Below, piece after piece: positions 19,880-26,261 of a stretch of DNA of 64,000 bases; positions within the stretch are counted from its first letter, which is position 1, and every line of letters begins with the position of its first letter. This DNA is from Mobula hypostoma. Lineage: Eukaryota. The stretch covers positions 106,146,001 to 106,210,000 of the forward strand of contig NC_086097.1 in assembly GCF_963921235.1 (NCBI RefSeq). Reading direction: 5' to 3'. A program made the position numbers and the translations under genes. Below the pieces are notes generated by a model, which searched no databases, was not told the origin of the DNA, and saw only the letters and a list, made by a program, of their open reading frames with translations.

Positions 19880-21151
19880 CATCTTGTCTCTCACAATCCC
19901 TCCGAAAGTGACCCGCTTCCCCACAGCTGTAGCACACCCCCGGCCACTCACATTCCCACCGGAAATGCCCCTCTTTCCCACAGTTACAGCACATGCTACC
20001 CGTCACCCCTCTCCTCCTGGGACGCCTCCCACTCCCAACCCACGGTGCGGGCCGTCCCCTGGAGGGGGTACTCTCCCTGTCCATCCCCTCAAGCGGGACC
20101 CCCCCAGGACCCCTTGGATTTCTCGGTTCTCAACCCAGCTACCGCCTCCTGAACCGCTGAGGACCGTCCCTAGTGGCCCACACCCCTTTTCCGGCCTAAC
20201 GCGCCCGAATGATGGAGGGGGCTCCTTTTATAGGACTGCCAGAGACTCCAAGCCACCTTGTCCTCCTCCAGGGAACCAGTAAATATCTGACTCATCCTCA
20301 ACCTCACCACTTCATCTGCCTTCACTACCCCTCGGCGCCAACAACGCAGTAAGCATTCTCTCCAGCCGAAAACTGTATTCTGAGAGCTTTTCCCTCTACC
20401 CTGCCCCATGTGGTGAAACTCCGCTAAAAGTTCCCAGGGATCTCCTGACATCCCAAACGCTCCCTCCAAGGCTTCCAGATACTCCGCCAGGGAAGCTGAG
20501 GGCCATTCTGCCCTCAGCTCGTGGACTACACTGGCTGCCCCTCCCCTCAAACTTTCCACCAATCGCTGACTCTTTTCCTCATCTGAACCTGGCCACGCCT
20601 CTAACAACGGGGACGTATTCTCAATCCATACCTCGTAGTCCTCCTCCCCTTCCAGGGTGGGCATGGCTCCTGAGAAAATTCTCAGCTTCGGGCAGGGCCC
20701 CTCGACCCTTCTCACCAGGGAGGTAATGGCGGCCGCTAACTCGGAGGTCTCACCTCCAGCTGGGGGACGGGGCCTGGCCAAGCCTTCCCACTCTAATCCT
20801 CCACCACTGGCTACTGGCACCTCCCCTGGGATCTCATCTAGCTCCTCCTTCGGCATCTCCTCACTTTCTTCCTCCGGGTGGGTGTGGAGACCCCATGGTC
20901 CCGTCTCCCCCTGTACGCTGACCATTGCTGGCAGTTCCAACGTCATGACATCAGCACTCGTACGAACCAACACCCAGCTAGATTCCACTTCTTTACCACA
21001 TCTTCTAGCTACCAGTTCTAGCTGCCCTATACCTTTAATCAAACTCAACCTTCACACTAGTACATCTCCTGAAATGCGGAAATCCACCGCACTTAACACA
21101 CACGCCTGATCACTGGTACTCACACCAACTTAAAATCTTATCTCAATCCAT
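19880..21151 (-). pseudogene. gag: Gypsy gag, PNMA-like capsid with two CCHC knuckles
   Basis: KLRIFSG..EEDYEVW..LVESLRGGA..YLEALEGAFG; knuckles CNCGKEGHFRWEC and CYSCGEAGHFRRDC; probable ATG at 21151, with stops and frameshifts. Confidence 0.85.
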
Positions 21152-21165
21152 CTTCGCACTACTTA

Positions 21166-23027
21166 ACAATAGACAATAGACAATAAGTGCAGGAGTAGGC
21201 CATTCGGCCCTTCGAGCCAGCACCACCATTCACTATGATCATGGCTGATCGATCCACAATCAGTATCCAGTTCCTGCCTTATCCCAATAAACTTTGATTC
21301 CACTATCTTTAAGAGCTCTATCCATCTCTTTCTTGAAAGCATCTAGAGACTTGGCCTCCACAGCCTTCTGGGACAGAGTATTCCATATATCCACCACTCT
21401 CTGGGTGAAAAAGCTTTTCCTCAACTCTGTTCTAAATGGCCTACCCCTTATTCTTAAACTGTGGCCTCTGGTTCTGGACTCACCCATCAGCGGGAACATG
21501 CTTCCTGCCTGCAGCATATCCAATCCCTTAATAATCTTATATGTTTCAATAAGATCCCCTCTCAGCCTTCTAAATTCCAGAGTATACAAGCCCAGTCGCT
21601 CCAATCTTTCGACATATGACAGTCCCGCCATTCTGGGAATTAACCTTGTGAACCTACGCTGCACTCCCTCAATAGCAAGAATGTCCTTCCTCAAATTTGG
21701 AGACCAAAACTGCACACAGTACTCCAGGTGTGGTCTCACCAGGGCCCTGTACAGCTGCAGAAGGACGTCTTTGCTCTTATACTCAAATTCCCTTGTTATG
21801 AAGGCCAGCATGCCATTAGCTTTCTTCGCTGCCTGCTGTACTTGCATGCTTGCTTTCAGTGACTAATGTACAAGAACACCTAGATCTCGTTGTACTTCCC
21901 CTTTTCCTAACTTGACTCCATTTAGATAATAATCTGCCTTCCCGTTCTTACCACCAAAGTGGATAACCTCACATTTGTCCACATTAAACTGCATCTGCCA
22001 TGCATTTGCCCACTCACCGAGCCTGTCCAAGTCACCCTGCATTCTCATAACATCCTCCTCACATTTCACACTGCCACCCAGCTTTGTGTCATCGGCAAAT
22101 TTGCTAATGTTACTTTTAATTCCCTCATCTAAATCATTAATATATATTGTAAACAGCTGCGGTCCCAGCACTGAACCCTGTGGTACCCCACTGGTCACCG
22201 CCTGCCATTCCGAAAGGGACCCGTTAATCGCTACTCTTTGCTTTCTGTCAGCCAGCCAATTTTCAGTCTATTTCAGTACTCTGCCCCCAATACCATGTGC
22301 CCTAATTTTGCCCACTAATCTCCTATGTGGGACTTTATCAAAGGCTTTCTGAAAGTCCAGGTACACTACATCCACTGGCTCTCCCTTGCCCATTTTTATA
22401 GTTACATCCTCAAAAAATTCCAGAAGATTAGTCAAGCACGATTTCCCCTTCGTAACTCCATGCTGACTTGGACCGATCCTGTTACTGCTATCCAGATGTG
22501 TCGTAATTTCATCTTTTATAATTGACTCCAGCATCTTTCCCACCACCGACGTCAGGCTAACCGGTCTATAATTCCCTGTTTTCTCTCTTCCTCCCTTCTT
22601 GAAGAGAGAGACAACATTAGCCACCCTCCAATCCACAGGAACTGATCCTGAATCTATAGAACATTGGAAAATGATTACCAATGTGTCCACGATTTCTAAA
22701 GCCACCTCCTTAAGTACCCTGGGATGCAGACCATCAGGTCCCAGGGACTTATCAGCCTTCGGACCCAACAGTCTATCCAACACCATTTCCTGCCTAATAT
22801 AAATTTCCTTTAGTTCATCCATTACCCTAGGTCCTTTGGCCACTATTATATCTGGGAGATTGTTTGTGTCTTCCCTAGTGAAGACAGATCCAAAGTACCT
22901 GTTCAACTCATCTGCCATTTCCTTGTTCCCCATAATAAATTCACCCGATTCTGTCTTCAAGGGCCCAATTTTGGTCTTTATTTTTTTCCTTTTCACATAC
23001 CTAAAGAAGCTTTTACTATCCTCTTTT
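21166..23027 (-). mobile_element. 5'-truncated CR1 LINE inserted in the Gypsy leader
   Basis: NYRPVSLTSVVGK, YLDFQKAFDKVPH, GVPQGSVLGP, KFADDT, RGHSLRIRG; (ATTGTCT)n tail at 21166-21185. Confidence 0.93.
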
Positions 23028-23067
23028 AAATTGGCGTGGCGACTTATACAGATTTACTGAAAATCCA

Positions 23068-23089: not shown

Positions 23090-23922
23090 TGTAATGCTCA
23101 GCTATATTGGCTCGTATTTATCTAGGGTAAACCCCGTCTGCCGCCACCTTGTCTCCCGGTTATGTCGGTTGCTGTACAACTGCCACCTAATTCAGCTTCA
23201 AACATCAATCATCAGCCAGCACACAATGTACGTTTTACCAATTACACCTTATAGATATTACTAGGTCTATGAGATTAATAGAAGTTCAATACAAAAAAAG
23301 GAATGGAAAAGGTGCCAGACTTATCAAAGTTCAATTTCTTCGTGCACACGTTGGAGCTCAGGGACCTCTTTGGGACCACTCGGACCCCGTCGACTCGCAG
23401 CTCAGGACCACCCAAAGTGATCAACCTGAGCTTTCCCGCAGGTCCGTCGTCCTCACGGTCTCTCCTCCGACTTCCCGCCCGGAGTGATCAACCTGAGCTT
23501 TCCCGTACATCCGTCGTCCTCACGGTCTCTCCTCCGACTCCCCGCCCGGAGTGATCAACCTGAGCTTTCCCGCAGGTCCGTCGCCCTCACGGTCTCTCCT
23601 CCGACTCCCCGCCCGGAGTGATCAACCCGAGCTTTCCCGCAAATCCGTCGTCCTCACGGTCTCCCCTCCGACTCCCCGCCATAAGCCCCTGGTTCCCAGC
23701 CATATGTGACAGCATATCACCCCAAGAAAGAATAACATGGACACCCATTGGCTCATAGTACATCTGCTATCTGTTATAACGCAAGCAAAGTGCAAGCTAG
23801 AGACTTTTCAGCATTTAACATAACATAGAAGCCATTTTAATTCATATACGCAGCAGCTTAAAATATTAACATAACAAAGAAGCCATTTTAATTTTAACAT
23901 AACAAAGAAGAAACCCCTTACA
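23090..23922 (-). repeat. 5' LTR (833 bp) with 4 x 67-bp units
   Basis: TGTAAT...CTTACA on the plus strand; array at 23416-23680. Confidence 0.92.
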
Positions 23923-25085: not shown

Positions 25086-25369
25086 CTGAGGTCAATACAG
25101 AAAGTTTAATCCCTGGGCTATGGCTGAAAGACTGCTCAGCTTTTGCAGAATCGCCAAGGTAAAATTGTATCTCAGAATCTCTCTCTTAGTCACATATCTG
25201 CATTGTCTTGTATTCATTGCAACAGGTCCCAGTTTCCTCCTGCTTCCACAAGCATTGCAACTCTCACTCCCCGTCATCACATACATTCCCCATAGCAATT
25301 GCCATGGCATACACAATTTCTAAGCCCCACTGCAGAATGTCAATTACATTCCTTTCGCATATCATTTGT

Positions 25370-26100
25370 GAAAGAAGGCTCCAAGTCAAGGGTGTACAGC
25401 ATAGGCTCACGATCAAGCATACTTTCTTCAGCCAATGATTGGTGTGTCAAGGCTGACCTGGACAGGAAAGGCAGTTTTCCGGAGCAAATAGCTTTCACAA
25501 CATTGCGTCCAGATATAATCGTATGGTCTGACAGCAGTAGAGAAGCGGTTATTGGTGAACTCACAGTCCCCTGGGAAGATAACATCGATGAAGCCCATAA
25601 GCGCAAGTTAACCAAATATGCAGAGTTAAGATCAGAGTGCAGAGACAGAGGGTGGAAGGTCTCATGCTATCCATTCGAAGTAGGCTGCCGTGGGTTTATT
25701 GTGTTCACTCTCCAGAAGTAGCTGCGTGACCTTGGCTTCACTAGAAGAGAGATCAAGTCAACCAGCAGGGCTGTAGCTGAGGCAGCAGAGAAAGGATCAG
25801 CATGGGTGTGGACCAAGTATGTCCAGAGGGGCAGATAGTCAGACAGTGTATACATATCTTGCAAACCCTTCAGTAGTTGCATAGACACCTGAAGAGTAGA
25901 CTATCTGTTGGATGGAAATGACCAACAACTCTGATAGAGGCAGATGCCAAGTTTTTAAGCTCACCAGTGGGAGGTGGTGCTTTAGCACTGCTGGCCCACC
26001 ACCTCGAGGGAGTCTTGATCAGAAGCGGGCCGAAACTCCTGAAGACAGGTGGCAGATCAACTGATGATCCCACTGGTGATAGCACAGGACAGTTAACATC
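25370..26100 (+). mobile_element. 3' end of a HERO/NeSL-like (R2 group) non-LTR retrotransposon with restriction-like endonuclease
   Basis: TTLRPDIIVWS..ELTVPWEDNIDEAHKRKLTKY..GW..FEVGCRGF, one in-frame stop, then ..AEAAEKGSAWVW; followed by a structured 3' UTR. Confidence 0.85.
25999..26074 (+). ncRNA. Candidate non-circularly permuted hammerhead-like RNA with k-turn
   Basis: GGGAGT(26008-26013)/ACTCCT(26035-26040); GUC 26012-26014; TTGATC(26015-26020)/GATCAA(26055-26060); GAAA 26032-26035; CTGATGA 26061-26067; k-turn CGA/GAA-GA-C. Stem II is weak. Confidence 0.6.
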
Positions 26101-26261
26101 TTAGTCCATGTGTATTTTGTAACTCTGTATAGTATAACATCATCCCAAAAGGCTGCCAAAGAGGTGGTTGTGCTCATCTATCTACCTTGCTTTGCAGAAG
26201 TAAATATGCTGGGCAGACCAGTGGCAATGGTAAAGATTTTGCCCAGTGTTTTGTTACACTT

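Follow-up and report, generated by a model that had tools for sequence, protein, structure and literature searches.

Hammerhead ribozymes with non-circular permutations of their strands have been described from soil metatranscriptomes, alongside hairpin ribozymes, as types SGC (HRIMA-1), CSG and GCS (Eckert, Friedrich, Weinberg and Weinberg, NAR 2023, PMC10085705). In type SGC, where the strands follow in the order cleavage site (S), GAAA (G) and CUGAnGA (C), CUGAnGA continues without a break into stem II, and stems I and II are linked by a fourth helix; the descriptor reads h5 of stem III, UH, h5 of stem I, 0–8 nucleotides (nt), h5 of stem II, CGAAA, h3 of stem III, 0–15 nt, h3 of stem I, CUGAUGA(U)G and h3 of stem II (PMC10085705). 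Here we describe a motif that is like these RNAs in its core, its cyclic strand order and its pseudoknotted stems, and that occurs in animal-type retrotransposon DNA instead. It lies in a 64,000-nt stretch of the Mobula hypostoma genome (assembly GCF_963921235.1, contig NC_086097.1, positions 106,146,001 to 106,210,000; hereafter the window, whose coordinates are used throughout), for which a preliminary description had reported a hammerhead core in scrambled order downstream of the open reading frame (ORF) of a retrotransposon that it called HERO-like. The domain that contains it, at 25961–26079 on the plus strand, belongs to the 3′ untranslated region (UTR) of an R2-like retrotransposon without long terminal repeats (a non-LTR retrotransposon), and we consider it likely to be a complete hammerhead ribozyme with a new wiring that cuts itself.

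Penelope-like elements and retrozymes carry minimal hammerheads of type I, reportedly described by Cervera and de la Pena in 2014. Like the motif in the window, these hammerheads occupy the non-coding end of a retroelement, often with head-to-tail or partial tandem copies, and cutting of tandem precursor RNAs has been suggested as their use (Craig et al. 2021, PMC8557442). They form ordinary three-way junctions of type I, in many cases lacking helix III, and their host elements have a GIY-YIG endonuclease, whereas the element in the window has an R2-like endonuclease and its motif has a full helix III and a different, new topology. R2 elements resemble the window element in superfamily, as judged by the endonuclease fold, and in having a conserved pseudoknotted RNA near the 3′ end (PMC12222951). 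The self-cleaving ribozyme of R2, which is like that of hepatitis delta virus (HDV), resides at the 5′ end and frees the element RNA from its co-transcript (PMC13725137), while the R2 3′ element is no ribozyme; in contrast, a single 3′ UTR domain in the window appears to combine both. In full-text literature outside subscription journals we found neither a hammerhead reported from such an element nor one of this topology, and the same holds for passages of a November 2026 paper reviewing ribozymes in retrotransposons (PMC13725137).

All letters quoted in the preliminary description were found at the places given, namely GGGAG-UC at 26008–26014, UUGAUC at 26015–26020, GGGCC-GAAA-CUCCU at 26027–26040, CUGAUGA at 26061–26067 and UCCC at 26068–26071, together with CCACCU (25999–26004), the GAA bulge (26041–26043), GA (26044–26045), AGGUGG (26047–26052) and GAUCAA (26055–26060). 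A relaxed descriptor of the order S-G-C, which demands UH with position 17 other than G, GAAA, CUGANGA, a stem I of at least 4 base pairs (bp) and a stem III of at least 4 bp including A15.1–U16.1, and which leaves stem II free, gave a single match over the two strands of the window, in which stem I and stem III have 6 bp apiece. Among 40 block-shuffled windows (128 kb each over both strands), the same descriptor gave 0.1 matches per window. Rfam 15 recognized no family in the window, either at the gathering threshold or at expectation (E) values up to 10, nor in 20 related loci. The motif at these coordinates is confirmed as real and non-chance.

The comparison with relatives presented below distributes the predicted core over four strands. 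The first is the 10.x strand of stem II, GGCCC at 25993–25997 (G10.1 at 25993), which pairs with 26027–26031. The second comprises the 3′ strand of stem III (26008–26013, with U16.1 at 26013), the cleavage-site nucleotide C17 at 26014 and the 3′ strand of stem I at 26015–26020, which pairs with 26055–26060. After a linker at 26021–26026 that connects the distal ends of stems I and II and is A-rich in relatives (for example UUAAA), the third strand carries the 11.x strand of stem II (26027–26031, C11.1 at 26031), G12, A13 and A14 (26032–26034) and the 5′ strand of stem III (26035–26040, A15.1 at 26035). The fourth consists of the 5′ strand of stem I (26055–26060) followed by C3 to A9, CUGAUGA, at 26061–26067. 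Two further helices complete the domain: P1, a 12-bp helix in which 25961–25972 pairs with 26068–26079 and through which the motif RNA is entered and left, and the hairpin Pa (25973–25980 with 25985–25992), which sits flush between P1 and stem II. Stem III is extended by a kink turn (k-turn) into a further helix, NC, as detailed below.

Relatives of the C-terminal domain of the retrotransposon protein were found at 34–78% protein identity, the named ones being from a brittle star, amphioxus, bivalves and fishes. When metagenome contigs were scanned with a profile, 520 relatives were returned, from which the best 80 loci were kept, and the locus counts that follow refer to these 80; no relative was found among viral contigs. 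With the relaxed descriptor, the compact motif was detected in 47 of the loci, always on the coding strand, and in 44 of these 47 it lies 61–232 nt downstream of the end of the ORF match (459, 610 and 717 nt in the others); in several additional loci the motif is present but for a single mismatch in a stem or a single mutation in the core. A covariance model, R1, was built from a MAFFT alignment of 20 sequences with only P1, Pa, NC and stem III as its structure, stems I and II being left out. At E values up to 0.01 it gave 57 matches, all on the plus strand, comprising the window once and 56 of the 80 loci. Four or five more loci (L117, L120, L151, L168 and perhaps L172) were found by the descriptor only, for a total of about 60 of 80, and nine loci have too little sequence after the ORF for the motif to be judged. 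When both strands were scanned for all six block orders, each stem being required to have 5 bp or more, the order SGC occurred on the plus strand in 38 loci, other orders occurred in two, and the minus strand gave none. Motif-bearing loci are scattered over all major branches of a quick tree of the protein domain, which has deep splits and was used for the spread of the motif only. On this comparison, the sequence at 25961–26079 is one member of an RNA domain that is widespread and conserved among the 3′ UTRs of R2-like non-LTR retrotransposons.

Covariation was assessed in two alignments, one made with MAFFT only (20 sequences) and the other made with the model (56 distinct sequences), against controls in which the partner strand was slid by 1–3 columns and against 500 shuffles. 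The model-made alignment is biased towards P1, Pa, NC and stem III and not towards stems I and II, which are absent from the model, and pairs in these related sequences were counted by sequence rather than by event. Standard pairs filled 92.1% of cells in the MAFFT-only alignment (34–45% when slid) and 94.5% in the model-made one (36–44% when slid). Pairs changed on both sides numbered 34/41 and 39/41, respectively, and six helices covary. The covariation score was 0.696 in the former and 0.805 in the latter, compared with 0.07–0.13 and 0.07–0.12 for the slid controls, and none of the 500 shuffles reached either value. By helix, compensatory changes affected 10/10 counted pairs of P1 and, in the 56-sequence alignment, 7/7 of Pa, 6/6 of NC, 6/6 of stem I (95.9% paired) and 5/6 of stem III. 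For stem II they affected 4/5 pairs (91–94% paired) in the 56 sequences and 3/5 in the 20, where 100% of cells are paired. Exchange of stem II partners between loci was a weak control, since different loci have similar strands and 18% of swaps still gave 5/5 pairs; for this helix we therefore relied on pair types and slid controls.

The same 56 distinct sequences show the core to be nearly invariant at the positions expected of a hammerhead. G12, A13, A14 and A15.1 are each kept in 55/55, U16.1 in 56/56 and G16.2 in 55/56; C3 is kept in 51/54, U4 and G5 in 54/54 each, and A6, G8 and A9 in 53/54 each; G10.1 is present in 53/56 and C11.1 in 46/54, with U in five more. The position between A6 and G8 varies freely (N7 is U in 31, A in 12, C in 9 and G in 2), and H17 is C in 23, U in 21, A in 11 and G in just one. 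A domain that has C3 to A9 with N7 free, G12, A13 and A14, the A15.1–U16.1 pair, a non-G nucleotide at 17 and stems I to III adjoining the core has the parts of a hammerhead, and the combination of a free N7 with any base but G at position 17 is the hammerhead signature. Departures from the core in single copies (e.g. L118/L121, L153, L166, L182 and L194) may reflect decay. GUH, GAAA and CUGAnGA are conserved and stems I, III and NC change in a compensatory manner, and the hammerhead core in a non-circular, pseudoknotted order that the preliminary description had proposed holds up in distant relatives, where both core and stems are kept.

Stem II is where the comparative structure parts from what had been proposed. 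The preliminary description paired GGG of 26027–26031 with the CCC that follows CUGAUGA; the conserved partner of GGGCC is instead GGCCC at 25993–25997, upstream, and UCCC belongs to P1. In consequence, the three-strand order given there is replaced by a core on four strands with a four-way junction. P1 has 7/7 pairs in 41/55 loci, against 7.8% in the swapped control, and it begins at A9+1 without a spacer in 45/49 loci; Pa is flush on both sides in 34/49. P1, Pa, stem II and the core are accordingly predicted to form a perfect four-way junction between A9 and G10.1, because A9 runs into P1 and Pa adjoins both P1 and stem II, and the unbroken strand from A9 into stem II that marks the hammerhead three-way junction is missing. 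The comparative fold has a rough energy of about −60 kcal/mol (P1, Pa, NC and III together −45.5, stem II about −9 to −10.5 more and stem I about −4.5), pseudoknot penalties ignored, which is no worse than the −53.9 kcal/mol of the nested minimum-energy fold. The latter contains P1 and stem I plus a 9-bp hairpin, 25971–25979 with 25997–26005, which distant relatives do not conserve; an off-switch peculiar to this family could explain it, as could chance. We rejected the nested fold as the conserved structure, as this family-specific hairpin occupies the positions that the comparative data give to Pa, stem II and NC. Also rejected were an ordinary type II hammerhead with P1 for its stem II, since no GAA follows the P1 5′ strand, and a C/D-box-like k-turn made from CUGAUGA and P1, in which the bulged strand has no GA.

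A k-turn of the Kt-7 type consists of a canonical (C) stem, a 3-nt bulge, tandem sheared G.A and A.G pairs and a non-canonical (NC) stem. At the sequence level the window has all of these. The non-bulged strand at 25999–26007 holds the 5′ strand of the NC helix (25999–26004), C26005, G2n (26006) and A1n (26007), and the bulged strand at 26041–26052 holds the loop GAA (26041–26043), G1b (26044), A2b (26045), C26046 and the NC 3′ strand (26047–26052). The 3-nt bulge, GAA in the window, and the signature G and A residues are as in Kt-7, whereas 3b.3n is C.C in the window and G2n is replaced in 12 of 56 relatives. The signature is otherwise kept (A1n 52/55, G2n 44/56, G1b 41/48, A2b 45/48), which agrees with the extension of stem III through a k-turn into CCACCU/AGGUGG that had been noticed at the outset. 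Beyond P1, the tail at 26082–26126 comprises hairpin Pb (26082–26090 with 26104–26113), a UGUAU word and the 3′ end of the element at 26126, 13 nt past Pb and without poly(A). A hairpin followed by UGUAU (TGTAT in the DNA) is found after P1 in 30/52 loci, compared with 8.7% of shuffles.

Whether the motif corresponds to a known permutation, a question raised in the preliminary description, is answered in part by its cyclic block order, which is that of published type SGC; the published SGC descriptor, on the other hand, does not fit. Every element of that descriptor is present in the window up to CUGAUGAU, after which C stands in place of G and a stem II strand is missing. The two RNAs are alike in the short linker from stem I to stem II and in tolerating something between A9 and G10.1, which in active published type-SGC ribozymes is an extra U (PMC10085705). 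They differ in that the window motif has a detached 10.x strand that comes first, a P1/Pa four-way junction, RNA ends that leave through P1 and a k-turn on stem III. A conserved helix between the free sides of stems I and II was not seen; that position is occupied by the pairing of NC with sequence upstream of stem III. In a term search of the supplement of PMC10085705, the window's CUGAUGAUC and GGGCCGAAAC words had no occurrence. The motif is not type SGC, because its stem II 10.x strand is detached and first and a four-way junction follows A9, nor does it match another of the six published orders.

The element itself was identified from its protein. Upstream of the RNA motif, 25296–25838 on the plus strand encodes the C-terminal part of the retrotransposon ORF, comprising a zinc knuckle and a restriction-like endonuclease, with RPD...E...K endonuclease motifs whose columns are invariant among relatives of the domain. 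The ORF ends with the stop codon TAG at 25836–25838, in agreement with the distance of about 170 nt initially given. The copy in the window is 5′-truncated near 25380 and has a frameshift near 25715; in a fuller copy of the element, RVT_1 and zf-RVT domains were detected. An AlphaFold model of the last 262 residues of the ORF (predicted local distance difference test score, pLDDT, 83.3) was used for a fold search, in which the best matches were R2Tg (E 1.9e-8), R2Pm (1.7e-7) and R2Bm (2e-6). A profile search of Protein Data Bank (PDB) sequences with the C-terminal domain gave no R2 match, and the kinship with R2 is seen by fold only. As judged by this modeled fold, the element is an R2-superfamily (restriction-like endonuclease) non-LTR retrotransposon with reverse transcriptase (RT), zinc knuckle and PD-(D/E)xK endonuclease, in keeping with its original placement as a retrotransposon with a restriction-like endonuclease and the motif in its 3′ UTR. 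Domain searches of the fuller copy and of downstream ORFs of relatives revealed no GIY-YIG domain, and a Penelope-like element with a minimal type I hammerhead was rejected on this ground, on the R2-like endonuclease fold and on a topology that is not type I.

The element family is abundant in the 3.48-Gb host genome, with 1634 candidates at first look, and the 40 scored host copies are 97–100% alike; the top copies overall are 95–100% alike in a star-like pattern. In the 3′-end comparison, based on the 15 of 30 fetched host loci in which the stored strand contained the exact anchor, the copies agree as far as 26126 (...GTAACTCT) and then continue into unrelated flanks without poly(A). The host genome offered no useful subfamilies for covariation, and the 3′ end word of other organisms led to one diverged copy among 30 loci. 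Separately, 26008 is A, not G, in 7 of 25 extra host copies (L092, L097, L102, L104, L105, L107 and L113), which would replace the distal G.U pair of stem III by A-U and may mark a subfamily.

Close relatives were examined in contigs from four runs of other organisms, one of which (X15) covered 6 of 30 bins; the difference counts given are the well-supported ones, with 149 less-supported differences left out. In three other organisms 25965–26118 is the same as in the window except at 26022, where the window has G and its own family has T, and a 130-nt piece over 25971–26100 has two differences. The ORF and the proximal UTR of these organisms have many well-supported differences, the ORF differing by 6–10% and one piece by 24 in 411 nt. 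The last 150 nt are the most constrained part of the element, because the differences fall in the ORF and the proximal UTR, and they vary too little among close relatives for a covariation test. The last 7–8 letters of the element, at 26119–26126, differ, the host having ...TAACTCT where loose ends of the three other organisms have CAATTC after 26118, and the preceding 150 nt are unchanged.

From this structure we infer how the domain may work. The four-way junction would replace the A9–G10.1 backbone, the path running from A9 through P1 and Pa to G10.1 with each adjoining the next; were P1 to stack on Pa, and stem II to stack on the core plus stem III, A9 and G10.1 could remain stacked in their usual places although the backbones cross over. 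Stem III, the k-turn and helix NC would fold back in such a way that 2–3 nt can reach stem I. The RNA is predicted to cut between C26014 and U26015, and after the cut the products would be held together by about 29 bp (P1, II, NC and III). The domain and the tail hairpin are probably recognized by the RT, a companion role that is likely by analogy with the R2 3′ UTR element. The predicted cut is 112 nt upstream of the DNA 3′ end at 26126 and therefore does not define that end, contrary to the proposal in the preliminary description that the folded RNA sets the 3′ end of the retrotransposon RNA. The most likely use of cleavage would rather be the processing of read-through or multimeric transcripts at unit junctions. 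Among 38 loci with at least 400 nt after the motif, 13 have the N-terminal part of the next unit's ORF on the same strand, 54–625 nt on, and none has it on the other strand; RVT_1 was detected in 4/5 of the downstream ORFs. Self-similarity gave repeat periods of 3661–3831 nt, with head-to-tail units in L137 and L132 (one 9.1-kb contig), L154, L155 and L161. One contig has two adjacent units with open ORFs that are 67% alike, which suggests insertion beside resident copies rather than simple duplication. It is this frequent position of the motif at unit junctions that points to processing of read-through or multimeric RNA. One whole metagenome contig, L136, ends exactly at H17 (...GGGAGUC), which hints at an in vivo trace of cleavage; no contig starting at the cleavage site was found among the metagenome contigs.

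Several observations weigh against a self-cleaving domain of this kind. Ten loci with at least 250 nt after the ORF are without the motif, and in the window family the 9-bp hairpin of 25971–25979 with 25997–26005 competes with Pa, stem II and NC. Helices that interrupt the A9–G10.1 backbone are without precedent, insertions there of more than 1–2 nt not being known according to Eckert et al. (PMC10085705), and the broken backbone could leave activity low or absent. In its own genome the window family is dispersed, with one motif per copy, and multimer processing therefore cannot be the only role of the motif there. The contig L136 is a single case, one of three contigs ending inside the motif, and may stem from RNA or DNA. 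Finally, of 40 host copies that have the last 112 nt, 15 are known to extend upstream; of the other 25, 22 continue through the 70 nt upstream and three (L102, L111 and L116) begin at about 25959–25974, the 5′ edge of the structured domain. None of the 40 begins at 26015, and retrotransposed templates therefore read across the site.

The last observation is shared with the alternative that deserves most attention, in which the hammerhead fold does not cut and serves only as a structured handle for the RT, perhaps with a k-turn-binding protein, in starting target-primed reverse transcription. The domain lies 46 nt before the element 3′ end, the whole last 150 nt are unchanged in three other organisms, loops included, and the endonuclease domain folds like that of R2, whose R2Tg protein binds a small conserved pseudoknotted 3′ UTR element (PMC12222951). 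Genomic copies that read through the predicted cleavage site would be expected of such a handle, and the break in the A9–G10.1 backbone may cripple catalysis. However, the catalytic nucleotides are kept down to 34% protein identity with N7 free and G at position 17 once in 56, a pattern of active hammerheads for which a plain protein-binding fold has no known need. We therefore regard a handle that never cuts as rather unlikely, though well ahead of the other alternatives, and the handle and cleavage roles are mutually compatible. Less likely still is a circular intermediate: in tandem arrays the hammerhead would cut both unit ends, the halves would re-pair through the same helices (P1, II, NC and III, about 29 bp) and be re-ligated by the ribozyme or a cellular ligase, and the resulting circular RNA would be copied by the RT from a fixed internal start after the tail hairpin. 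We put this forward as speculation with a small chance of being right; if true, the elements, with their restriction-like endonuclease, would be an autonomous counterpart of retrozymes, and their head-to-tail arrays would be accounted for by rolling reverse transcription.

Two other readings fare worse. A three-strand type-SGC hammerhead, with stem II formed by GGG 26027–26029 and CCC 26069–26071 and a cut that sets the element RNA 3′ end, is allowed by the letters in as much as three G-C pairs can form, and its strand order of cleavage site, GAAA and CUGAnGA is that of type SGC. It is nevertheless refuted by covariation, since 10/10 pairs covary between the strand that follows CUGAnGA and the P1 strand far upstream, and the strand before GAAA covaries with 25993–25997. 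Contiguous pairing of the strands chosen for it is 0–2 bp in most loci and 0 bp in the window, the published descriptor (CUGAUGAG or CUGAUGAUG, then stem II) does not fit, and copies end at 26126, not 26014; we hold it to be highly improbable. The chance of a fortuitous resemblance within an ordinary structured 3′ UTR is smaller again and close to negligible. No Rfam family matches, and with very many windows scanned rare chance motifs are expected somewhere, but one match in the window stands against 0.1 per shuffled window, and the motif recurs in 56–60 of 80 distant loci, on the coding strand only and after the ORF only, with 39/41 pairs compensatory. Cumulatively, a self-cleaving hammerhead with a four-way junction remains the reading that we favor.

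Two other features of the window lie outside this element. A broken RT ORF of a long interspersed nuclear element (LINE) of another kind occupies 20170–23053 on the minus strand, in pieces of 293, 200, 134 and 261 amino acids. At 23282–23758 on the plus strand, overlapping frames repeat a peptide-like unit (...SDQPELSR.SVVLTVSPPT.RPE), which points to a tandem DNA repeat of about 67 bases.

If these RNAs cut, the hammerhead core would tolerate four strands and a four-way junction in place of the A9–G10.1 backbone, the assumption of three uninterruptible sequence blocks would be broken and the search space for ribozymes would be larger. They would also be the first hammerheads tied to R2-like (restriction-like endonuclease) non-LTR retrotransposons, elements that are now being engineered for gene insertion and whose 3′ UTR RNA is the handle of the RT. 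More than 50 natural covarying sequences are available for biochemical and structural tests. For the elements themselves, the domain suggests a connection, open to testing, of ribozyme cutting with tandem arrays and the choice of template, and also a possible RNA-processing step in their life.

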